Source: Candidatus Thorarchaeota archaeon
GTDB taxonomy: Archaea; Asgardarchaeota; Thorarchaeia; Thorarchaeales; Thorarchaeaceae
DNA length: 64,000 nt
NCBI GenBank assembly: GCA_963726195.1
Contig: CAVSBO010000003.1
Location: 800,001-864,000, forward strand
Direction: 5' to 3'
Under the pieces are notes generated by a model, which saw only the letters and a list, made by a program, of their open reading frames with translations, did not search any database and was not told the DNA's origin. Of the stretch, positions 4,158 to 64,000 are shown one piece after another (positions within the stretch are counted from its first letter, which is position 1; each line of letters opens with the position of its first letter). The position numbers were made by a program, and so were the translations under genes.

Positions 4158-5464
4158 TTGCAAACAGTTAGTGGATTTAATATCAATTGGTACCACACAT
4201 AGACAGGTAATTGACTGTGCTGAATGGCCGACCGAGGTCATGAGAACACGAAGATCACGCGGGCCTACAAAACAGAACTGGGACCCAACAACGCCCAACG
4301 TTCGGTCATGCTCAAGCATATCGGTACAGCGAGGTTCGCGTACAACTGGGGGCTTGCGCGGCGGAAGGAAGAGTACGAAAGGACGGGAACTTCATCGAAC
4401 GCTATCGAGCTGCACAGGCAGTTGAACGCATTGAAGAAGACAGAGTTCCCGTGGATGTACGAGGTTTCCAAGTGTGCCCCGCAAGAGGCCCTACGAGATC
4501 TCGACAGGGCGTACAAGAACTTCTTCGAGGGGCGAGCAAAACACCCGAAGTTCAAGCACAAGAAGTTCGGCGCAGGCAGTTTCAGGCTCACAGGAGCAAT
4601 CAGGGTGTTCAGAGACTTTGTGCAGTTGCCCCGAATCGGCACGGTCAGACTCAAGGAGAAAGGCTATCTCCCAGTTGAGAGAGGCCATGTGCTGTCCGCA
4701 ACTATTTCAGAAAGGGCGGGAAAATGGTTTGTGAGTCTTCATGTAGAGGAAGAGATTGAGGTCAGGATTAATACTGGACCTGTGGTAGGGGTTGACGTTG
4801 GTATCTCGAATCTTGCCACAGTCAGTGACGGTACTATCATTGCAAATCCGAAACCTCTTTCACGCTTGGAGCTGAAGGAGAAGAGAATCCAGAGGTCTCT
4901 TGCTAGAAAGGTAAGGGGCAGCAGAAACCGTGCCAAGGCCGTGATACGGGTGGCCCGGTTCGAACTCAGGATTGCTAACATCCGCAGGGATGCACAGCAC
5001 AAAGCCACAACGGTGCTGGCGAGAACCAAGTCCGTCATCTGTGTGGAAAGCCTCTATGTGGCGGGGCTACTGAAGAACCATCGCCTCGCAAAGCATCTCG
5101 CGGATGCAGGCATAGGAGAGTTCCTTCGCCAGCTGAAGTACAAGACAGTGTGGAACGGAAGCACAGTCGTGGAGGCTGACCCGTTCTTCCCGTCCACGAA
5201 ACGATGCTCCAGCTGCGGAGCAGTCAAGGACGAGATACCGCTTTCTGAGAGAACATACAAGTGCGAGAGTTGTGCTTTTGAGGCCGACCGCGACTTGAAC
5301 GCTGCAATTAATCTGGCTTCAGTCGCCGCCAGTTGGGCGGAGACTCAAAACGCCTGCAAGAGTGGAGAGGTCCATGCCTCTACAAGAGGCAGGTGCTCCG
5401 CGATGAAGCAGGAACCGAACACTGTTTGGGACAGTGTCCTAAATGGGTAAGTTTCGGACAACGG
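4158..5464 (+). mobile_element. Non-autonomous TnpB-only IS (IS607-type ends, no tnpA)
   Basis: GGTT at both junctions (4156-4159, 5463-5466); right end AACGG as in the 55-63 kb element; contains only tnpB. Confidence 0.7.
4224..5450 (+). CDS. tnpB: TnpB RNA-guided endonuclease
   Basis: RAYKTEL..ARFAYNWGL N-terminus; RuvC GVDVG / VESL / DRDLNAAINL; Zn finger CSSC..CESC. Confidence 0.95.
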   Translation: MADRGHENTKITRAYKTELGPNNAQRSVMLKHIGTARFAYNWGLARRKEEYERTGTSSNAIELHRQLNALKKTEFPWMYEVSKCAPQEALRDLDRAYKNFFEGRAKHPKFKHKKFGAGSFRLTGAIRVFRDFVQLPRIGTVRLKEKGYLPVERGHVLSATISERAGKWFVSLHVEEEIEVRINTGPVVGVDVGISNLATVSDGTIIANPKPLSRLELKEKRIQRSLARKVRGSRNRAKAVIRVARFELRIANIRRDAQHKATTVLARTKSVICVESLYVAGLLKNHRLAKHLADAGIGEFLRQLKYKTVWNGSTVVEADPFFPSTKRCSSCGAVKDEIPLSERTYKCESCAFEADRDLNAAINLASVAASWAETQNACKSGEVHASTRGRCSAMKQEPNTVWDSVLNG

Positions 5465-46694: not shown

Positions 46695-47022
46695 GGCCGT
46701 TGCACAATCGGAGCCGGGTTCGTGTGTGGTTTATCAACCTTTTCAAAGTCCAATGCTTGATTATGTGCACAGTCGACTGCCTCTCATGTACAACGAACAT
46801 TCCGTAATGGAGGAATTGGTAACCCCTTGACCTTTCGCCCGTGGTCGCACGAATGAAATCAAGGGGTTCAATTCCTATGGTTGACTGTTTATGTCTCCTT
46901 CTGCCGTTCATTGTGAGTTGGACAAAGTTGGACACAGGAGTCTTCGTCCGCCCAGAAACGGCACTGGGCTCAAACTCCTTGAGGTCAGGTTCGTGTCGCT
47001 TCAACCTCAATGACTGAATTCC

Positions 47023-47508
47023 TCATTGAGGCTTATGTACTCCCACAGTTTCATGTCCATGTTTGTCCAGATTCTCGGCAGCTGCCGCTGAACCTAAATA
47101 GTCGGCGAGCATGATTCCTGTCGCCGTCAGGCTTGCCTGAAGCCCTCTGGTTGCCATGTCGCCTCCGACTAGCAGTCCCATGTCGATCAAAGCGCGAAGG
47201 TTCCATTTGACGGTACTATATGGAAGGCTGCTTCTGCGTGATACCTTATCGGCAAGGCCTGTGACTGTCAGTTTGTGAAACCTAAGCAACCAGGCAGTCA
47301 TCCTCAGTACCGTCTTTTGAGTCTCGCTCATCCGAACATCTGCCAGTGTCAGAAATGCTGAGGCAAGGCTCTCAAAAGAAGGCTTCTCAGTCGGTTTGGC
47401 TTCTAACTCAGGTGACTCACGGCCACCAGAGAACGAATCCACCTCGTCGGCGGATTTGGCACCCACCACTTGTCTGAGCGACCCGACATCGATGGGCATT
47501 AGGTACAC
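47023..47508 (-). CDS. Winged-HTH protein
   Basis: YSTVKWNLRAL.DMGLL..SLT.TG. Confidence 0.7.
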   Translation of the reverse strand: MYLMPIDVGSLRQVVGAKSADEVDSFSGGRESPELEAKPTEKPSFESLASAFLTLADVRMSETQKTVLRMTAWLLRFHKLTVTGLADKVSRRSSLPYSTVKWNLRALIDMGLLVGGDMATRGLQASLTATGIMLADYLGSAAAAENLDKHGHETVGVHKPQ

Positions 47509-51810: not shown

Positions 51811-52533
51811 TCACACGGTCTGTTGCCTACGTTCAAGCTCGAACAGCTCAAGATGCATCTTGATACCCGGTGGTACACCCTTTACGAGTGGTTCAAGCTC
51901 TTCCCGTGTCGGTATCCTGAGTTTGGGCACTTCCGTTTTTCTCGTGCCAGCTGATGCTACATATCTTTGTACAACATATCGTCCCCTGAATCCAATCTCA
52001 TCGAGAAGCCCAAGGATTGCTTGTACATCTTGAGTCGACATGAGATTGCCTGCATAAGTGGTCCGCGGCCAAAAGGCGGCGTCTGAGCCCATCACCAATT
52101 CTATGCTTTCGCGAACTTTGGGCCAAGGGTCATACGATGTTCTGACGACCTCACGATACCTTTTGGGATCCGCTTTGATATCAAACCAGACAGAGTCCAG
52201 ATATGGAAGACAATGCTTGAGGACATCTGGTCTAGACCCTTGAGTGTTCAGGTTAAGGTGATAGTCCTTCTTTCGTCTTAGTTCCTTCAGAAGCTGGGGC
52301 AGGTCTCGATGAATCGTTGGCTCTCCGCCTGTTATGCAGCAACCGTTCGAAAGACTGCCTTCAGTTTTAGCGACTATGGCTTTGATAGGCATATCAGTCC
52401 CCGATGACTCCGGAATGAGCTGTGCGTTCTGACAGTAGGGACAGTCGAAGTTGCATCCGCCAGTAAAAACGACAGTCACAGGAATGCCCGGTACATCAAC
52501 CAGGCTCACATCTATAACAGAAGCAATCCTCAT
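51811..52533 (-). CDS. Anaerobic RNR activating radical SAM enzyme (NrdG-like)
   Basis: SLVD.PG, GCNFDCPYCQN, TGGEPT, DIKA. Confidence 0.85.
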   Translation of the reverse strand: MRIASVIDVSLVDVPGIPVTVVFTGGCNFDCPYCQNAQLIPESSGTDMPIKAIVAKTEGSLSNGCCITGGEPTIHRDLPQLLKELRRKKDYHLNLNTQGSRPDVLKHCLPYLDSVWFDIKADPKRYREVVRTSYDPWPKVRESIELVMGSDAAFWPRTTYAGNLMSTQDVQAILGLLDEIGFRGRYVVQRYVASAGTRKTEVPKLRIPTREELEPLVKGVPPGIKMHLELFELERRQQTV

Positions 52534-52675
52534 TCTATTCCTTCAGTTCCCACTAGGTCATGCGGCAGTTAAATCTGCAACGCAAGAGCAATGCCCTGAA
52601 GTGAACACAGTGTGAGAACGCTTTACCTAGAACACTTATTTTGTAGAAGCCACTTGGTCTCTTGGGACCCCGGCA

Positions 52676-52948
52676 ATGGCAAGTGTATCTAACAAGCGAG
52701 AGCATATTCTCCAGAGTACACTGTTTCACATACAAGTCAATCAGTGTCAATACATCGACAATTTCCCTGAAGCGGTCACGTCAGTCCTCGACGACATGAT
52801 CCATAAGAAGAAGATACGGGACTTCGACGTGGTGAAGAAGAGACTGTACAGAATCAACACGAGCTTCTTCGAAATCAACAAGCAGAAAGTCAGCAAGAAG
52901 GATTTCTTCGAGGGTCTGTTCAGGCGAGTCTCTGGCAGAAGGAACTAA
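52676..52948 (+). CDS. Small basic hypothetical protein
   Basis: 90 aa ORF filling the intergenic space. Confidence 0.45.
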   Translation: MASVSNKREHILQSTLFHIQVNQCQYIDNFPEAVTSVLDDMIHKKKIRDFDVVKKRLYRINTSFFEINKQKVSKKDFFEGLFRRVSGRRN

Positions 52949-53020
52949 AGAGAAAGAATCTCAGAATCTGCCTTGCCGGAAGGTCAGAGGACCCTGCTCC
53001 AGCAGTCTCGCGGTACAGTT

Positions 53021-54226
53021 CTACACGGGTTCTGAAATCTCGAAAGTAATGATGAAGTTTGCTCCAGAGGACACCTTCCCGGACACCCGATCTTGAACCT
53101 CAATTCTCGCGCCGTATTTGTGAACCATCTGTGCGACAAGTGCGAGACCCACGCCTCCAAAACGTTTGGCCCGGTCAAATAGCGACTTCTTCTTCTCGCC
53201 ACTGATGCCAGGTCCATTGTCGGCTATAGAGAGCCTGAACCACTGTCCTTCTCTCTGCCCCGAAACCCACACTTGCTTGTCTTCCTTGGTGTTATGCCCA
53301 GCAGCATTCTCTAGAACGTTCCACAACAGCTCGCCAAGAAGAGAATCTGCCTTGACCCTCACGGGGGAGTCAAAGCCCTCAACGTGCACCTTGGCTTCAT
53401 AGACTCGCTCAAGAACCCCTATCTTCTCTTTTATTGCACTTGACAAGTCAACACTCGCATTAGGGATTCCCCTAATCTGACCTGCACGCTTTGTCTTGGT
53501 TATCAGTCGATTGCAGCGTTCCACAGCGTCGAGGATGTCATGCCTTGCGTCGTCGATGTATGATGGTGGCAGGTTCTGTTCAAGCAATCCTGCTGACATC
53601 ATTATGACCTGTAACTGGTTTGCTATGTCGTGCGTAATCAGATCAAGGTAGAACTGGACTGTTTCCTCTGCATCCTTTTGTTCTGATATTTCCGTGATAA
53701 CAGCGAACGAACCGACAAACTTGCCCTTAGAGTCGAAGTATGGTGCGGCCGCTATGATAGTTGGTACAACCTCTCCCCTGCGGTTCACCCATTCCATCTC
53801 GTATCTCTCGGACTTGCCATCTTTGCGATTGCGAATTCTATCCTTAGCCATCTTGTGGTCCTTTTTCGTCGTTAACTCGACCCAGTTCTTTCCAACAAGC
53901 TCCGAGGGAGAGTAACCGAGCATTTTAGCGAAAGCATCGTTGGCATAGACTATCCTTTCATTCTCATCATCTATAGCCAACCCTTCTCTCATAGTCTCTA
54001 TCAACAGACGGTATACAGACTCTGCATTCGCAAGTATTCCCTTGCCCGAGTCCTGGCCTGTGGCATCCTTGGATTTTACCAAAGTCAGCTTCGCCTCGCG
54101 AGAGTCTGCACATTCATGATGGACCCGAAACACACGTCCTAATCTTGTCTCGGGAAATGGGCTAATTGAGGTTATGCTGTTCGTCTTACAATTCGGCCAC
54201 TGTTTGACCATGAGAAACACCAGCAA
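53021..54226 (-). CDS. PAS-domain sensor histidine kinase (true start probably ~54080)
   Basis: PAS (YANDAF..GY..ELVG), H-box HDIANQL, N-box NVLENA, DNGPGI, GGVGL. Confidence 0.9.
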   Translation of the reverse strand: MLVFLMVKQWPNCKTNSITSISPFPETRLGRVFRVHHECADSREAKLTLVKSKDATGQDSGKGILANAESVYRLLIETMREGLAIDDENERIVYANDAFAKMLGYSPSELVGKNWVELTTKKDHKMAKDRIRNRKDGKSERYEMEWVNRRGEVVPTIIAAAPYFDSKGKFVGSFAVITEISEQKDAEETVQFYLDLITHDIANQLQVIMMSAGLLEQNLPPSYIDDARHDILDAVERCNRLITKTKRAGQIRGIPNASVDLSSAIKEKIGVLERVYEAKVHVEGFDSPVRVKADSLLGELLWNVLENAAGHNTKEDKQVWVSGQREGQWFRLSIADNGPGISGEKKKSLFDRAKRFGGVGLALVAQMVHKYGARIEVQDRVSGKVSSGANFIITFEISEPV

Positions 54227-54262
54227 ACCAAAGGACCTTAAACCAAGGTCAGAAGTTGCCTA

Positions 54263-54973
54263 GTGATGCACTCATCAGAATCGAATACCGACAGACGATT
54301 GAGAATCAGCCATGGTCGCACTTGCAATTGCCCTCCGAATCACATCAACTGCCTGTCGGCCAAAGAGTGGATTCAGCATCAGATTGCTGTATGGGAGTTC
54401 TACTACGAGGCACGGGATGTGAGGGACAAGAACATTCATCCAGCGACCTATCCCATAGCACTTCCGTCAAAGTGCATATCTCTGTTCACTCATAAGGGTG
54501 AACTGGTGCTGGACCCATTCGTCGGTGTGGGAACAACACTCGTCGCAGCCAGAGACCTCGCACGCAACGCAGTCGGGTTCGACCTAAAGGCGGACTATGT
54601 CGATTTCTCCAACAAGCGGCTGAGCTCTATGTCGGACAATGAGACAACGCAGATTGCATTGTGCGATGACGCTCATAACATACCTTCGTACCTTGAGGAG
54701 GAAACTGTTGCCGTCTGTGTGACATCTCCGCCCTATGCAAACCTCCTGAATCGCCGCAGACAGAACAAGAGTATGAGGGGCAATCTCAGGAAGGATGAAT
54801 ACTATCTCAAGGTACAGCAGTATTCTGACGATCCGAGGGATTTGGGCACCATGGATGCCGAGCCCTATGCGAAAACGCTAGGTGAAATCTTCGGTGGCAT
54901 TCTTCCTTTAATGCGACATAGAGCACACTGTCTTGTCAACATAACTGACTACTGGTGGGAAGACAGAAGGGTT
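54263..54973 (+). pseudogene. DNA methyltransferase (N4-C/N6-A, SPPY), 5' part, interrupted by IS607-like element
   Basis: HPATYP, VLDPFVGVGTT, TSPPY; frame runs into the element after YWWEDRRV. Confidence 0.92.
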
Positions 54974-54989
54974 GACAACAGCTGCCTAG

Positions 54990-55009
54990 AAGTTGGACAA
55001 TCTTGGACA
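54990..55009 (+). repeat. Left subterminal inverted repeat (2 x TTGGACA)
   Basis: AAGTTGGACAATCTTGGACA; 19/20 match to the reverse complement of 63088-63107. Confidence 0.9.
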
Positions 55010-55048
55010 CCACAGAACTGAAGAGCCGCAGCGCGACTGACACGATGC

Positions 55049-55675
55049 ATGTTGAGTGTGTCAGCAGCTGCGGTCAGGGTTGGGGTCTGTGCAAAAACCA
55101 TCCGACGGTGGGACGACAGGGGTCTTCTCCGATGTTTCAGGACCCGAGGTGGTCACAGACGAGTGCCTCAGTCAGAAATTGAACGAGTCATCTCAGAAAG
55201 GGAGCCGAGAGCAGATTCTCATATGACCTGCTCAAGAGCAACAATCGTGTACGCACGAGTATCGTCCCACGGGCAGAAGGCCTCAGGTGACCTTGACAGA
55301 CAGGTCGGCGAACTGCTCGCAAGTTCTGGCGAGGCATCTCCTCTTGTCCTCCCTGACGTCGGCTCCGGACTCAACATGAGGCGCAGGGGTCTATGGCAGC
55401 TGATACATGCTGCAGAGAGAGGACTCGTCAACCGGGTGATTGTCACTCACAGGGACAGACTGGCCCGCTTCGGGACCGAATTGATTGAGCATATCCTCTG
55501 CCTCCATGGCGTGGCCGTCAATGTCCTTCACGAGAACCGGGACATGACTCCTCAGGAAGAAGTGGTCGCCGATCTGATAGCACTAATTGCATCGTTCTCC
55601 GGACGTATCTATGGGCTTAGAGGTGCCATCCTCAGGGCCACAAGAGACCCGCTCAGACAAAGTTCTACTTCTTGA
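55049..55675 (+). CDS. tnpA: IS607-family serine transposase
   Basis: MerR-like HTH (GVCAKTIRRWD..TRGGHRR), YARVSS, GSGLN, DRLARFG, SFSGRIYG. Confidence 0.95.
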   Translation: MLSVSAAAVRVGVCAKTIRRWDDRGLLRCFRTRGGHRRVPQSEIERVISEREPRADSHMTCSRATIVYARVSSHGQKASGDLDRQVGELLASSGEASPLVLPDVGSGLNMRRRGLWQLIHAAERGLVNRVIVTHRDRLARFGTELIEHILCLHGVAVNVLHENRDMTPQEEVVADLIALIASFSGRIYGLRGAILRATRDPLRQSSTS

Positions 55676-55694
55676 AAAGGGACGCGGTCCTCCT

Positions 55695-55729
55695 CACGAT
55701 TTCTCTCCAGCCCCGGTGGAGAGACCGTG
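55695..55729. terminator. Hairpin between convergent tnpA and cargo genes
   Basis: CACG..TCTCTCCA-N7-TGGAGAGA..CGTG. Confidence 0.45.
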
Positions 55730-55784
55730 GGCTTCAAGCTGTTTCTCTACTGCGTTTTCGGTTTTTCCGTCTTGAAACCTTGCG

Positions 55785-58700
55785 TCACTCCTGATTTCCA
55801 GAAGCTGCACCCTGTTCATGAGCCTTCCGGACATCTCTAACCACATCAGGGACCTGCTTCCTCAATACCTCGCCAAGGTTCTCAATGCTCTGGAGTCGAG
55901 GCACTATTTCGAGCTCCACAGCCTCTCTTACTTCTCGCACCGCTTGTTGTACACCTTCGCCGAGCAGGATCTTCGGGTCATCATAGAGCATTCCCGATGC
56001 TGTACGAGTTCCATCGGTTTCTTCACTTACCCAATAGATTGCCTGATTCTGAGAATACAAGGTCACTGTCCACGTCGCTGGCTCCTCCGCGAACTCTTCA
56101 TCATGGCGACCAAGGTGTGTTCCAGCATGATTCAGCCAAGATGTCACTCGCCTGATGAACTGCTGTTTGTTCCTTATGGAGAAACCGCTCATCTCGCCCT
56201 CTCTCATGCTTTCCCTTAGCATGTCTACGACTTCCTCGGCATCCTCTTCACTCTCAATCTCTATTGTCCGTGACAGGAGCGGCTCACGTCGACCCTGTCC
56301 GATAGGAAAGACAGCATATGTACAGCTTGTTTCAGACAGGTCAGAGAGCCGTAGTTCACAAGGTGGGCTTCTTGCCGAGTACCCATGTCCCTTGAGTTCT
56401 GACAGGATTCGCTTCCTGAGCGCTCCGTACTCCTCTATTGCATTCATTGGGATCCGGGACGTGATGACATTCAATATCCTCTGGCACTCTTTCTCCGCGC
56501 CGTGGCCGTGCACCAACTCGATTGTCTGGGGAGTTTCCGTAAGGAATAGTCCTGTGATTGTCGACTGTGCTTGCCACTCGACATACTTCGGCTCTGTACA
56601 TGACAGGCCGACCAGCCAAGTCTGTTCTCTCACTCTCAGATAGGTTCCGGGCTCTAGAGGTTTCAATGACAGACCGTTCCTCCGAAGGAACATGCGGACG
56701 TACTGCTCCTCATGATACACCACGCTTTCATCTTCCCCAGAACCCTAGGCATGACGATGGCAAGTCTGTACAATCGCCCTGCATAGACTCTCCCTGGGGC
56801 AAGGAGCCCATTCACAGCTTCTCCGGTCATCGGTCTTCCAAGCTGTCGCTTTACTTGATTAGGACAGTCTGGCGGCAATGATATCCGCCAGCAGGCACCG
56901 TGATCGTACTCCTCACTATAGGGCGATGGGACAGATCGACTGGTCATGTTCAATGCTCACCTTGAGGGTCCCGGCCTCTTCGAAGAACCCGGACACTCGT
57001 GCAGGGAGTTCCTCCACCTCAGTTCGTGCAGCCTTGAAAGTGACATATGGTCCAATGAAATCCAGTTCTCCGTACACGATATCATCGAAGACACTCCAAG
57101 TGACGTACGTGCCCGAGTCTGTGTACATGGGTCCTGAGTTTGTCATAGGCCATCTGAGGAGTGAAATGAGTTCTGCCGTGTATTCCACGTTCACCTCTTG
57201 GAGGATTTCATCATCGCCATCAACGAACCTAACTTGGCAGACATTATTCACCATCTCAAGACGCACACTGACAGATGCTGGTCGCGTGACAGCCTCGATG
57301 TACCTACGCAGAGAGGCTGCCACACGTTGGTAGAACGACTCTGGTAGTTTCGTTCCTTGAGAAGCTTCAGTAACAGAGGGCTTAGTGAAGGACTGTCTTA
57401 TGGCACGGAGATGACGGACTGATGAGTGCCCCTGTTCCACCAGCTCGAGGACTCCCGAGTAGACTCTCTCATGATCGTCCGTTTCCATGCTCCATGTTTC
57501 CAGCCCCTGTTCAGTTGGTCTGAATTCCATTAGGACTTGTGAGGACCCGAGAATCTCGTCGGGTGTCTGTTGTGTTAGTACCTCTTGTTTGGTCTCACTC
57601 CAGAGGAGCCCCTCCTTGTCTGGAGACTTGCTCATGAAGCAACCAATGAGCATGCGGGCCTCATTCTCGGGGTCCTGCATGACAAGCCACCAGGGAAGAG
57701 CAGTCTCATCCTCCGGTAGAAACCTGATTCCAAACGTCAGTCCAGCCGTCGTTCTTTCACTGGAAGTGACAAGCTCCACTGTCTTTGGAGGAAATGCAAC
57801 AATGGTTCCTGGCCTTGTCTTCAACCTATTGGGTGAGCGGTAGAGCCGCTGGGAATTGATTCTACCCAGGGTCGTGGCCACGTACCCCTTGCCGGCCCCT
57901 GTCTCAGGGTGTCGGTAGCGCACAAGGTCAAGGACACTTGGAGTCTTGGCGGGAGGCCCATCAAGAACTCGTACTTCGAAAGTCAGGTCATCAGGGGCTC
58001 CTCTGAACTCATGCATGACTGCGTCGAACCGTTCCTTGATGCTCTCTTTCGAGTCATCTGAGAGCATCTTGTCAGGCCACAGGCAGACAAGCCAAGGGAG
58101 CAAGGTCATCGAGAGGAGCCTTATCCTGCTGCGAGTAGCCTTGTCGGGTACGATGTCGTCCAGCCCTCTCTCCTGCACAACGAGTCCCTTCCCTTGGTTC
58201 TTGAACCGCCTTGACCAGCCCCTCAGCGGAGGTACGAGCACGAGCTCAGTGTTCATGTCTTCGGGAGAATGGCGAACGACTACTCGGATATCATCATGCA
58301 TTGGTGAGTCCCCGATGACTGGCAACCCACATTTCTCAGGCTCGACAGCATTCCTTGGTGCCACAGGTAGGTTCCAGACAATCTCAGTGACGACCTCAGC
58401 AAGAGATGAATTGTCATAGAATGGGAGAAGGGCTCTGGTTGCATATGGGACGGACTTCTCGGAAGAGGGCGTAGGTGCATCGAACCACAGGACCGTCGTC
58501 TTCTTGTTGTCTGGAAGACTGTCCAGAAGCTGGTCCATTACGACCTGTAGTCTATCTCGGTGGCTCTCCGGAGTTGCATCTCGCAGGGTATCTGCCCCCG
58601 TCACGATGACTATTGTGTGGCTATTGATGCCCTTGTCCAGCTCGAACGATGGTATGTCTCCACCCTCATAGAGATATGATAGGATTTCGTCAAGGCGCCC

Positions 58701-60745
58701 TCTAACCTCTATGCCTTGAAAGAACTCTCGAATATGGTCTGGTTGCGTCTTCGCCACCTCGTCATCAGAGTATCCTCTTGGCCTTAGGCGAAGGCGTGCC
58801 TCTGCAAGGTGGGGCTCAGTGAACTGACTTGCAAGGTCAAACCAAACAAACCGTGCACCGAGGTGGCTCTCTTTCATCTCATAGAGCATCTGAAGCCCAT
58901 GATAGTTCCGTGCATTCCAGGCGGCGGACTGGCCTGCAGATGTCGGGGATCTCCCTACAAGATAGAGAATGAATCTTCGTCTGCTCTCTAGGCTCTGCTG
59001 GAACGGGTTGTAGAGTGGTTTCCACGGGACGTCAATAGCCTCTCCCCCCTGCTTCTCAGGAACGACTTGCTCATGAATGATCAGAGCGACTCTGCTATTG
59101 CTTCCTCCAATAGGCCTGATGGCCGTTCTTTGAACTGCTCCACTCATCTTCTTGATGGATTCATAGGCCTTTACCAATAGCCCTTCAATGGTTCGTCTGG
59201 CTTTATTGATATCAGTAATGGACTCGATGACTATCGTTCCTCTTGGCACGTACCTTGGCTCCAGCCCAGTGGCTTCATGGTATCTCTCAGCCAGCGCTTG
59301 TGCATAGACCTCTACTTGTCGCTGTGCAGATGCGCTGGGAGCGGATTTGACAATGGCGTCCCATTCTTTGTCCTCAAGAGTTCGGTCTTCAACGGGTAGC
59401 TCAGCAACAATACGGGGAGGAAGCCCTCTATGCAATCTGGACTCAGATGATTTCTCTTCAGCATCAATATGCCACTGATGCCCCATGCGGGTCTTGATCT
59501 CGCAGACGAATGCTGGTCTCCAGAGGATTTGTTTCCCGTCAGCTGTGATGATCCTCTCTAGAAGTAGAATGTCCACTTTTCCCAACCCGGACTCAGTCAC
59601 TATCGCCAGCTCTGACACAATAGCATACTCAGAGGCCCCTACATACCTATGTCCATTGAAGATGACGTCATTCAGATGCCATGGGCTGGGAAAGAGGTCT
59701 GATATCCTTCTGTGCATTATCGACCCCTTTAGTTTCGCTCGACTGGTTGCCTGCTGTCTGATGTATTCGACATCAGCTTTGGTTAGGCACGGTTCTTCAA
59801 GACCGGGCGTTCTAATGAAACCCCTCTGTGTCAGTCGTTCAAGCTCTTGAAGAGCAGGATGATTGCCATAGAATGTCAGTGCTTCGTCGAGCTGGCTCCG
59901 AAAGAAGTCGAAGGACGTATTGGATGCTCCATGTTCGAAGTCCCCCATCACGCTCTTGGCCGCTTGCATCGTGGGGTGATACCCGGACTCTGAAATCAGC
60001 TCTTTCACTCTTCGAAGAGCAGCGTTCGCCCCCTTTCTGAACTCTGGTCTCCCACACTTGTGCTCTGAGTAGATGTATTCAAGATAAGGTCGTACAAGAA
60101 GGAGAAGGAGATTGCAGTACTTGGTGGTCTCGCTCACAGGCACATCACAGATTGTGCAGTAGGTGGCAAGATACTCACCATGACTCCGAGCAGCATCACC
60201 AAAGTCCATAGAGGGAAGGTCAGGATGCGTGAGCATGACTCGTGGCCCGAAGGAGGACCCCTCGTATCCTGCGACTCTAAACTCTTTTCTGTGAGATCCC
60301 GCTCGCACTGTACGTGTTCCAAATTGAGTGGCATCAGGAAATGGGAACTCTCTCTGTGAGAACTCTCTGAGGGTAGCACCACATGCATTAAACCGCTGGT
60401 TCAGAGGACCCACAGTGCCATCAGGATTCTTCTGTCTGGAGACCTCAGTATGCCCAAATTCAGCAGCCTTCTCATAGAGCATCTTGAGCATGTTGTTCCT
60501 GATTTGAGGTTCAGCCTTGAGAACGGACGAGCAGTCAGGGGTACCTCGTTCCTTGCTCAGAAGATAGACGTGTCGAGTCTCTGCCAAATCTCGTAGGAAC
60601 TCCAGTAATGAGCACAGGTCAGTCTGTTCTTCATGCTACATTGGAGTTTCACCGTCGAGGCAAGCCCTGTCCGCAATGCAGCTGACATGACACGTTCTGG
60701 ATGAACGGGTAGTGGCCGAACAGGACGCCCTCTTGGCCTTGCCAT
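55785..60745 (-). CDS. Giant cargo protein (~1,650 aa if 3 frameshifts are repaired) with RecB/Cas4-like PD-(D/E)XK nuclease
   Basis: Overlapping ORFs 60557-60745, 56916-60587, 56663-56953, 55785-56723; GSIMH, KVDIL, CEIKT, QVEVY motifs. Confidence 0.7.
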
Positions 60746-60955
60746 CTCACTGATAGGATGGCATTGTGATATTTAAGTTCATTTTTTGGAAGTAACAGGC
60801 GCGGAACTCAGGTATCAAGAACTGGCTTGTTTCATAAAATCTGCCCCTTCTTCTTTATCAAACAAAAGGCTAACCTTTTACTCTGGTAATTATACGTCGC
60901 TTGCTTTTGTATGCCCTTATATCCCGACTTCAGCACCAATATGCGGTAGAGGCTG

Positions 60956-63087
60956 ATGAAGAGACAACCCCGGCGTCATCCCCGGGCGCCAAACCATGAC
61001 GTACAACAGGCAAGGCAACAAACAATGGATGATAATTATACGTCCTCTTCATCCACTTACCAAGCCGAGAAGTTCTCTCTCAACTCATATCCTAGAATTG
61101 TCGATCGAAAGGGAAAGAAAAGACGACCTGACCCTTCCTTCTCCGCAACACACAGACCCCCCGTCGAACAAGCACTAAGGGAGCTTGTCAGCGGCAACAA
61201 GTGCTCTGACATCGATATCCAGACACTTGAGCAGCACTTCGACAAGTATCTCAATGCAGTCAATCTCGTACTTGATGAGGTATACTCTGCTTCCGATCGC
61301 GCCCAGCGTGTCGGAGAGCGATTGCGCTCTTCAAGAGGACAAGGCTATGTAGTACTAAGAGAAGAGAACTTTCTAGAATGGAAACCGGACAACAGGTTCG
61401 GACAACTAGTCTATGAGCGAATGTATCGTAATGTCCTTGAGACCGCAGCCCGCATCGTGTTGGCTGACTACACGCGCAGGACACTGGTCAACTCACTAAT
61501 CACGATGCTGGCGAGTGATAGGCAGCAACTCAAGTCGCTCATGGCTCTCAAACGAATCCCTGCTCCTCTTGTCAGAAAGCTGCGAGCGACAGTCGGTGAA
61601 ACATCTGGTTCGTACTATCACTACGCGCTCACGGCATGCAAACAGCTTCGAAGAGCACTCGATGAACACCTCCTTGAGAGCTTCGGCGAGTCCACATCCA
61701 TCCGAAGACTAGCAAGGGACCGAGTTCGCGACCTTCTCGATACTCAATCGTCTGAATCAATCAAGGCCATGAATGCAACACTCAAGAAAGTGCAGAAATG
61801 GCACAAGACCGGTTTTCCATTCACTGCTCCCATTTTCAGACAAACCACCATGGACTTTACTGCATCTACTGAAAACACAACAGGACAAGGGTACTGGTTC
61901 ATGGAGGACTCCGAGCGACAGGACGAGGTTATCCTGTATATCAAGACCCCTCCCGGGGTCACAGGTCGTCAAGCCACGCCTGATTCACCGTACAAGAGCC
62001 AAACTCTTCGATTCAGGTTCCTCGACTGGTTGCCCCGAAAGGCAGCCCGTGCTCACAAAAAGGCAGAGGAGTCGAAAGCTCACGGTCATTTCAGCAGGGC
62101 CGTGGAGTCTGAATATCGTGCTGCACGCTTTGACGATATGACCCAACAGCTGAGGAACAATGTCAGACTGCAGTGCCTGAATAGACAACTTTCTTCTCTG
62201 AAGTCCAGAAAGGACATCGATGGAGAGAGGGTCAATGAACTGAAAGCCCAGATAACGGCGCTCAGACAGACCAGAAGGTGTGCCCCGCCCATCCTCAGTC
62301 TGCGAGGACACACTGCCACACTCATTATTCCCTTCCTATGCCCTGACAAACAGATGCTGAAACGAGTGCTGCCAACAGTCCCAAGGACAGGCAGGGCAGG
62401 AGTCGACCGGGGTCTGAGATATCCGGTGGTCCTCTCAGTAAAGAACGGTGCAAACAGTATGATGAAACAAAGATAGGAAGGCCAGAGTCATTCGAGAGAC
62501 GCGAGAGGCTCAGACAACGTACACGAGTCTTGATGTCACAGATCGTGCGACGACGGAACAACTGGGACAGGAAACGACCGATGCTGTCACCTCCGTCCTC
62601 TATTCTGAAACGGGAGAGAGAGCTGGAGGCAGTGTGGGCCAAGGTCCGACGCATCGACCGAGAAATCTCCCATCAGCTGGCCGCTGAGACCGTCTGGTTC
62701 TGTGAGCATCGTGGTGTCAAGACTGTCTACTTCGAAGACCTACGGTACTTCCAACCACAGGGCGGGTTCAAAACTCATTCATGGGAGCTGTCAACCAACC
62801 TCTGGGGGAAAATCATTGAAGGGGTCCGATATCGCAGACAGGCCCTAGGTCACAAGTACGGTGGAGTATGGACTGTGAACCCAGCCATGACATCCCAGAG
62901 ATGTAGTACCTGTGGTGAGAAAGGAGTGCGCGTCAGAGACAGTGATTCCACAGAGGAGGAGCACGGTGGGGAGTTCTTCTACTGCCCGAGCTGTGACCTC
63001 AAACTGCACGCAGACGTGAACGCGGCCAGAAACATCCTTATGATTCAACAACCCAAGCCCAGTGCCGTTTCTGGGCGGACTGCTTGA
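60956..63087 (+). CDS. Long TnpB/Cas12-like RuvC nuclease (~710 aa), frameshift ~62450
   Basis: RuvC-I GVDRG in ORF 60956-62476; shifted frame QYDETKIGRPES.. joins ORF 62530-63087 with FEDL, TSQRCSTC, CPSC, ADVNAARNI. Confidence 0.88.
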
Positions 63088-63107
63088 TGTCCAAGTTTGT
63101 CCAACTT
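63088..63107 (-). repeat. Right subterminal inverted repeat (2 x TGTCCAA)
   Basis: TGTCCAAGTTTGTCCAACTT immediately after the tnpB-like stop codon. Confidence 0.9.
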
Positions 63108-63117
63108 ACAATGAACG

Positions 63118-63294
63118 GTTCCTGCTCACATGTATGTCATCAATGCATTGCAGGATGTAGGGTACGAACTCCGTAACATAATCATCTGGGACAGGCAGAA
63201 CATAGTGAACCGTGCTGGCATCTTCGGGTGGCCCAACAATTACATCACTCTCAGCACGACCTTCGAGTACATTGTTGATTTCTGGCGTCCATGA
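63118..63294 (+). pseudogene. DNA methyltransferase, 3' part (not in the ORF track)
   Basis: VPAHMYVINALQDVGYELRNIIIWDRQNIVNRAGIFGWPNNYITLSTTFEYIVDFWRP*; IIW and EYI motifs typical of amino-MTases. Confidence 0.9.
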
Positions 63295-63351
63295 TGAGCC
63301 TCGTCAGTGACAAGCCACAGGTCACATGATTTGATTGACATGACAGGATTC

Positions 63352-64000
63352 TCAGATTCCGAGAATGGGAAATACCAATTCCTTGACCTTTCGAACTGTT
63401 TCGCGCACGGTCATCCATATTTCTGCATCATCCTTGAAAGGCGGCTTTTGCTTGGGAGGAGAATACTTGCGACCTGACAAGCACGGATATGACCGTGGCC
63501 ACACCCCAGCACAAAGAGTCTGGATGGTACCCTCCGCCCGTCACTACTCCAAGTCGACCGTCACTCCACTTGTGTGCTGCATTGTGTATTCTCTCTGCGA
63601 TGTATCTTATCATCGTCGTCGTCAGTTTGAGGTGCGCTAGGCGATCCAGGTAATGTGCATCAAAGCCGGGCAGAAACAGGATGAACTGAGGACGAAAGAA
63701 ATCGACCAGCTTCGGGACCAGCTCGTCAAAGGCATATCTGTATACTCCATCGCCCGCGTCCATCGGAAATGGCATATTGATGTTGTAGCCGGAGCCACGA
63801 CCAGAACCGACCTCGTTCACGTACCCTTCGTGAGGGTACATCCATTCAGGATCCTCATGGAAAGAGATGACCATGACCTCCGGATCGTCGTAGAAGTACG
63901 CTTGGTCCCCATTTCCGTGGTGGACATCGAAATCCGCGACAAGTATTCGATTCAGACCATTCTGTTTGAGCTCGCTAACAGCGGCCGCGATATCATTGAA
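63352..64000 (-). CDS. Histone deacetylase-family protein (3' part; late frameshift)
   Basis: DFDVHHGNG, ISFHE, GFDAH..D.L, GGGY; shifted frame ends ..VFPILGI* at 63352. Confidence 0.92.

Follow-up and report, generated by a model that had tools for sequence, protein, structure and literature searches.

An IS607-type element of a Thorarchaeota genome carrying an enlarged TnpB and a putative self-targeting guide within its gene

What is a TnpB of about 710 amino acids, and how might a transposon keep such a nuclease in check? TnpB makes double-strand breaks, and little is known about how transposons limit its expression. The question is raised by a gene near the end of a 64,000-nucleotide stretch of a Candidatus Thorarchaeota genome (the whole stretch that was analyzed, here called the window). 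A first-pass annotation had proposed that the gene encodes a transposon-borne, size-expanded TnpB/Cas12-like nuclease from an Asgard-like host, intermediate between TnpB and Fanzor or Cas12. The evidence points to a different answer. The locus is probably an IS607-type transposon whose enlarged, flank-guided TnpB represses itself via an internal guide, with a giant neighboring gene as an accessory. The large TnpB of this IS607-type element probably belongs to a class that computational surveys have listed before. The part for which no description was found in the literature is the predicted self-targeting internal guide, and it is well supported by covariation.

The element and its right-end RNA

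The nuclease gene is not an orphan: tnpB is the terminal gene of an IS607-type transposon, 8.15 kb long (54970-63118), and makes up its right arm. The transposon interrupts a host methyltransferase gene, with GG as the point of insertion (Table 1). Excising 54972-63118 in silico restores a 294-aa methyltransferase ORF that aligns without gaps to the C7 paralog (71% over 124 aa). The empty-site join is ungapped, meaning that the element went in at the GG core and duplicated no target sequence, the pattern known from IS607 (10.1101/2023.11.20.567912), and that a casposon-type target-site duplication is absent. Short subterminal repeats are found at both ends, a 23-nt arm of the left end is 91% complementary to the right end, and conservation ends at the GG boundary of the right end in all loci. 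These ends, the empty-site join, and tnpA, which is the only PF00239 match in the assembly (G000), bear out the earlier description of the nuclease as transposon-borne. Given this anatomy, TnpA would be expected from IS607 biology to excise and insert the element by crossover at the GG core, with no target duplication. The methyltransferase gene is flanked by a deacetylase-like ORF (63428-64000, minus strand) and a PAS histidine-kinase-like ORF (53021-54226, minus strand), both named from motifs only.

Table 1. Features of the element and its insertion site, in window coordinates
Feature	Position	Strand	Remarks
5' part of interrupted N6/N4 DNA methyltransferase gene (host target)	54263..54969	+	PF01555
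IS607-type left end	54970..55012	+	GG core 54970-71, paired 7-nt subterminal repeats; same end in ~190-bp mini-elements
tnpA, IS607 serine recombinase	55049..55675	+	208 aa; NF033518, 174 bits vs cut-off 110
Giant gene, head-to-head with tnpB	55785..60745	-	~1600 aa (1,400-1,900) in relatives; frameshifts at ~60578, 56919, 56742
Putative self-target	60884..60898	+	TAM-like TGG, then a 12-nt perfect match to the built-in guide; TATA box ~30 nt downstream
TATA-box-like motif of tnpB	60914..60925	+	Putative function; fixed distance conserved in upstream alignment
Large tnpB	60956..63087	+	710 aa once the 1-nt deletion at 62457/8 is bridged
5' copy of omega-RNA core	60969..61032	+	Codons 5-26 of tnpB; 5-bp hairpin with 8-nt loop (60969-86), linker, ACAAT, pseudoknot strand (61027-32)
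Putative built-in guide	61033..61047	+	Aimed at 60887-60898
Right end and omega-RNA core	63058..63118	+	Hairpin 63058-75, subterminal repeats ~63085-107, pseudoknot strand 63113-18 ending in the GG core
3' part of methyltransferase gene	63119..63294	+	First ~16-20 nt = predicted flank guide

Elements of 2.6-8.6 kb share these ends, with or without the giant gene. Their layouts are tnpA-giant-tnpB, giant-tnpB, tnpA-tnpB, or tnpB alone, and the right end is the same throughout. Many related elements lack tnpA, and a loose search found few left ends in the tnpA-less loci. A sister element on an ENA contig (L007), 92% identical over 6.4 kb, encodes an intact large TnpB (P0001) and occupies a different insertion site, which is empty in the window genome. 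The right flanks of the two elements share 9 nt, offset by one base (window 63121-63129, L007 6386-6394), though the host genes are unrelated. This single case could reflect chance or guide-biased target choice; no such sharing was seen by eye among other, more distant flanks. The last 60 nt of the gene also recur in ~17 mini-elements of ~190 bp in the same genome. One of these lies in the window (46904-47098, minus strand) and the rest in ~16 other places; they combine the two IS607 ends and the element's omega-RNA core with a TATA-like box and an additional hairpin. The mini-elements are likely to be stand-alone guide-RNA cassettes for the large TnpB and, since tnpA is the only recombinase found in the assembly, it probably moves them too.

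How would the nuclease be guided? At the right end, the loop of a 5-bp hairpin can pair with the element's last six bases, and both helices covary. Specifically, 97% of cells in the pseudoknot alignment are paired and 5 pairs have two-sided changes (0/500 shuffles on score); an Rfam search gave no match. By analogy with other TnpBs, the enlarged TnpB would bind this compact (~60-nt core) pseudoknotted omega-RNA, with the flank sequence as its guide. A guide drawn from the flank would direct TnpB to cut the empty site left by excision, thereby favoring retention of the element. Spacer capture beside the right end was ruled out for the window and L007 because their flanks are plain host sequence. 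The known IS607 elements with TnpB, ISXfa1 (PMC10711439) and CboIStron (10.1101/2023.11.20.567912), likewise have a serine recombinase, a GG core, a G-rich target, and a right-end omega-RNA pseudoknot that ends at the boundary, with the first flank base weakly paired. The window element differs from them in the size of its TnpB (710 aa versus ~400), its 5-kb divergent cargo, and a second, putative scaffold and guide at the 5' end of the gene.

The enlarged nuclease and its relatives

The TnpB-type frame covers 60956-63087 and, read through, has the ~710 aa first reported. The proposed start codon at 60956 is supported by an SD-like GAGG upstream and by conservation of the frame, at 39 of 39 loci, between the 5' hairpin and the second Met. 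Catalytic acids lie at 62405-07 (RuvC-I Asp, residue 484, matching the ~480 aa said to precede this motif), 62734-36 (RuvC-II Glu), and 63013-15 (RuvC-III Asp). The D-E-D triad and the four zinc-finger Cys, both of which had been noticed earlier, are invariant among the 109 homologs compared. The description of an intact nuclease therefore holds for the catalytic residues and fails for the gene as assembled. Comparison with L007 shows that the window lacks a C between 62457 and 62458. The deletion splits tnpB into a 506-aa ORF (60956-62476), which terminates just past the RuvC-I motif, and a 3' remainder read in the -1 frame. The ordinary 408-aa TnpB annotated elsewhere in the window (4224-5450) is real; it has an N-terminal HTH and belongs to a branch unrelated to the large family.

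A fold model made from P0001, which is 91% identical to the window protein, has a pLDDT of 83.8 and the WED/REC/RuvC fold of Cas12f and TnpB along the whole chain. The model aligns end to end with AsCas12f (residues 10-678, 371 aligned, Z 18.1, rmsd 3.8), including the N-terminal region, and scores lower against ISDra2 TnpB and Fanzor2 (Z 14.3 each). The reported size expansion is real and consists of insertions in REC and WED, with ~316 residues lacking alignment to AsCas12f. Judging from the model, the extra mass would comprise ~100 aa of REC helices, an ~80-aa WED helical hairpin, and a longer post-RuvC-I helix pair. The helical insert first seen ahead of WED-like strands corresponds to helices 336-414 of P0001, with WED strands on either side. 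A NAD_binding_9 match on this insert was treated as spurious because the region is helical in the model. Cas12f (AsCas12f, Un1Cas12f1) is the best match both by fold and, among solved chains, by sequence (E 9e-9, NUC lobe only); the window system differs in having ~300 extra residues and neither a CRISPR array nor a cas operon.

How widely is the large TnpB distributed? There are 219 homologs (the best 120 have a median length of 703 aa), and almost all of the named ones come from Thorarchaeota, in agreement with the Asgard-like host proposed at the outset. Of 85 genomes from the host family, 37 have the N-terminal region; it is missing from every other family sampled in the phylum. A profile search of 1.84 billion representatives found no homolog of this region outside the family; the C-terminal half alone was matched. 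The same genome has an intact paralog on contig C16 (49% identity) and two broken paralogs on C13 and C8, and a related-locus search in genome contigs gave no matches. In a RuvC tree that included no Fanzor or Cas12 references and had weak deep support, the large-TnpB clade is a long, isolated branch among anonymous relatives.

Could the large TnpB nonetheless be a size-expanded intermediate leading to Fanzor or large Cas12? Its REC and WED insertions, its IS607 context, and the identity of its nearest solved sequences (Cas12f) are all consistent with this idea, and it resembles Fanzor2 and pro-Fanzors in its TnpB fold and IS607 association. Fanzors and pro-Fanzors are marked by DPG at RuvC-I and by a Glu six residues ahead of the zinc finger (PMC10711439), and the window TnpB lacks both. 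Indeed, DPG is found in 0 of 109 large TnpBs, all of which have DRG, and the relocated Glu is likewise found in 0 of 109, the canonical Glu being invariant. The proposal of an intermediate is thus unsupported, because the Fanzor signatures are absent throughout. The protein also falls below the cut-off of every curated Cas12 model (for Cas12f2, 65.5 bits versus 450), and its fold score against Fanzor2 equals that against TnpB and is lower than that against Cas12f. As had been stated earlier, there is no CRISPR array: a simple repeat scan of positions 52000-64000, the fetched loci, and the genome (88.9% complete) found none, the single CRISPR-like match being a coding repeat. Together with the confinement of the N-terminal region to one family and the isolated position in the tree, these observations make descent of Fanzor or Cas12 from such a protein very improbable. 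Instead, the enlargement seems to have arisen in parallel and within this one lineage. Judged by its two natural scaffold copies, a nuclease of ~700 aa would work with a core RNA of ~60 nt. The protein would have grown while its RNA shrank, on a path that runs beside that of Cas12 and does not lead to it.

Is the break in tnpB real? Split genes elsewhere in this assembly call for caution, because 30 of 171 ordinary genes (~18%, with related-genome proteins as the reference) are frameshifted, or one frameshift per ~1,840 codons. At that rate, a 710-codon gene has a P of ~0.32 of carrying at least one. Compared with L007, tnpB has a dN/dS of 0.15-0.24, indicative of purifying selection, and the element ends and the putative self-guide are intact. 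The break is therefore best read as a likely assembly error. Alternatively, the element may be decaying and the window copy a genuine pseudogene, which would be compatible with the preferred explanation for the family; this is the less probable reading, although it has evidence of its own. The element has four frameshifts within 8 kb where 1.4 are expected (P~0.05), and 3 of the 4 large tnpB copies in the genome are broken, so real decay is possible; moreover, the 62457/8 deletion lies outside any homopolymer. Two of the element's deletions fall at AGCT, as a systematic error at this motif might produce; 18 of 24 AGCT sites are intact, and AGCT is not depleted. A programmed frameshift in tnpB was ruled out, there being no slippery run and relatives being read in one frame.

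A putative guide in the first codons of tnpB

The first codons of tnpB contain a second copy of the omega-RNA core, with compensatory changes both in the stem and in the loop/strand pairs. The sequence that follows it, in the position of a guide, matches a site at a fixed distance in the tnpB promoter at 35 of 39 loci, with 34 distinct guide sequences; the other 4 of 39 lack a good match at the fixed position. Agreement per position is 0.86-1.0 at positions 2-13, declines over 14-17, and is at background from 18. In the window genome, the 12-mer has only two matches at ≤1 mismatch, namely the self-target and the guide. Seed matches of at least 11/12 occur in the promoter of the same locus at 29 of 38 loci, compared with 2 of 224 promoters of other loci, and in the controls with 0 of 38 for the locus's own CDS and 0 of 190 for shuffled guides; these counts come from loci that are kin and hence not independent trials. 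Shared consensus cannot explain the match, because the guides differ between loci yet agree within each. The loop might instead have paired with the upstream start codon, but the compensatory pattern lies in the downstream strand, and this option was abandoned.

A mechanism for self-repression can be proposed. The tnpB mRNA would start with the second pseudoknot copy, followed by a guide that could pair over only ~12-15 nt with the promoter site; lying within the coding region, this guide would have to be processed out of the mRNA. The paired site is flanked by TG(G/A/T) and lies just upstream of the presumed BRE/TATA of tnpB; this TAM is not identical to the insertion context, which is mostly AGGG. 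For the enzyme as such, a G-rich TAM is predicted, (T/G)G(G/A), perhaps extended by the T that follows. TnpB with 10-nt guides binds without cleavage (PMC13507860). By extension, TnpB carrying the 5' self-guide RNA would bind the site without cutting and block its own transcription. The covariation is directly visible in the alignments, and from it self-repression of tnpB by an internal guide, taken alone, is judged quite probable. Which gene would be regulated? The self-target is kept in elements that lack the giant gene (L014/L038, L041, L024/L043, L044, and L033/L048), so the regulated gene is likely to be tnpB itself.

Alternatively, the 5' repeat could be a DNA-level protein-binding site or a relic of duplication. 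The targets are AT-rich and sometimes TATA-like, as a binding site might be, and the case for a guide is built from sequence, which counts in favor of this alternative. It is hard to reconcile with 34 different sequences that co-vary between two sites, with an in-gene copy that trails a covarying pseudoknot at the same spacing as at the right end, with a promoter copy that sits behind a conserved trinucleotide, or with a match that stops at ~15 nt. There is accordingly only a small chance that the repeat is not a guide.

Self-repression through an internal guide would have precedents. The Cas9 long tracrRNA (Workman 2021, as cited in PMC8730458) and the TnpB-derived repressors known as TldR (10.1101/2023.11.30.569447) likewise rely on short promoter pairing and on binding instead of cutting. 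The window nuclease differs from both in being transposon-borne and, by its residues, catalytically intact, and in having a scaffold and predicted guide overprinted on its own first codons. A literature search mostly of titles and abstracts, covering journals outside subscription barriers, found no description of a TnpB that represses itself through an internal guide, and the main text of PMC10691335 makes no mention of a self-targeting guide. If the proposal is correct, the family ancestral to Cas12 would contain a self-contained feedback loop, with a guide that is written over the first codons of the gene and evolves together with its promoter.

The giant Cas1-fold gene

What is the giant gene that lies head-to-head with tnpB? 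Its protein has 77 homologs, and 52 of the 86 genomes surveyed have the gene. No family was returned by searches of Pfam, NCBIfam, PDB sequences, and the ESM Atlas, and only folding gave matches. In the model (pLDDT 85), the first 240 residues have a Cas1 catalytic-domain fold (Z 12.9, rmsd 3.6, 178 aligned), and residues 590-844 have a RecA/RAD51-type fold (RAD51-paralog Z 11.8) without the canonical Walker A Lys. The middle has PD-(D/E)XK nuclease motifs and QxxxY, an assignment suggested by motifs and not by a fold match, and the C-terminal half is unfolded in the model. The E/H/D residues of Cas1 and the D/ExK residues are conserved. With it the locus has a diverged Cas1 homolog adjacent to TnpB in an Asgard genome, the hallmark of aCas1-TnpB loci; aCas1 was reportedly described by Makarova et al. 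2020.

The closest described systems are the aCas1-associated Asgard TnpBs Cas1H-Asgard-1/-2 (Altae-Tran et al. 2023, PMC10691335). As far as the main text of that paper describes them, these resemble the window locus in their Asgard host, in a TnpB beside a highly diverged Cas1-fold gene, and in their mobile context; the window pair differs in being bracketed by a serine recombinase and IS607 ends. The family fits these computationally catalogued groups, with the named groups compared by description and not by sequence. The protein thus probably falls in an already described TnpB clade, which counts against the reading first proposed for it. A hypervariable region with a GTTCACTCA-type motif downstream of tnpB is absent from the window and L007, where tnpB is followed by plain host flank. 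A motif similar to that of Cas1H-Asgard is instead seen at the C16 locus that encodes a TnpB of ~560 aa, so the motif may define the other of the two Cas1H-Asgard groups.

Is the giant protein the transposase, as the same paper proposes for aCas1-TnpB loci, possibly steered by TnpB and with tnpA incidental? The Cas1 catalytic fold with its conserved E/H/D residues would suit such a role. In addition, 20 of 20 further giant loci sampled have the gene head-to-head with a different TnpB of ~560 aa, with no tnpA match in the 10-15 kb fetched for each. However, the ends of the 700-aa family are of the IS607 type, with a GG core and no duplication, and identical ends occur on elements without the giant, which adjoins the large tnpB in 13 of 20 long loci and, on its own tree, switches TnpB partner at least 5 times. 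A giant transposase is accordingly unlikely for this TnpB group, for which the element's anatomy makes the published guess of aCas1 as transposase unnecessary. The giant was always seen with a TnpB. The reverse does not hold: elements without the giant share the ends, so neither the large TnpB nor its ends depend on it, and it would be an accessory dispensable for these ends. As such, it might help to repair the TnpB break from the element with its nuclease and RecA-type domains, a role offered tentatively. A self-regulated TnpB and the giant could also, with little likelihood, act together as an RNA-guided machine for integration or homing: TnpB would mark or open a site, and the Cas1-type domain would join DNA. 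If true, RNA-guided insertion would have a route that does not depend on Tn7-like CASTs.

The giant may be the mobility enzyme of the 560-aa TnpB family. This second family is found in the same genome (C16:221677-223383) and at L079-L098, head-to-head with the giant and with no tnpA match. Eight of its loci have 11-15-nt repeats ~95-100 nt apart behind TTAAT/TTCAT/ATAAT, unlike the motif of the large TnpB. The C16 copy is adjoined by GTTCACTC-like motifs and a tRNA-like gene, and at L085 (10257-13500) two tnpB genes of the 560-aa family stand in tandem.
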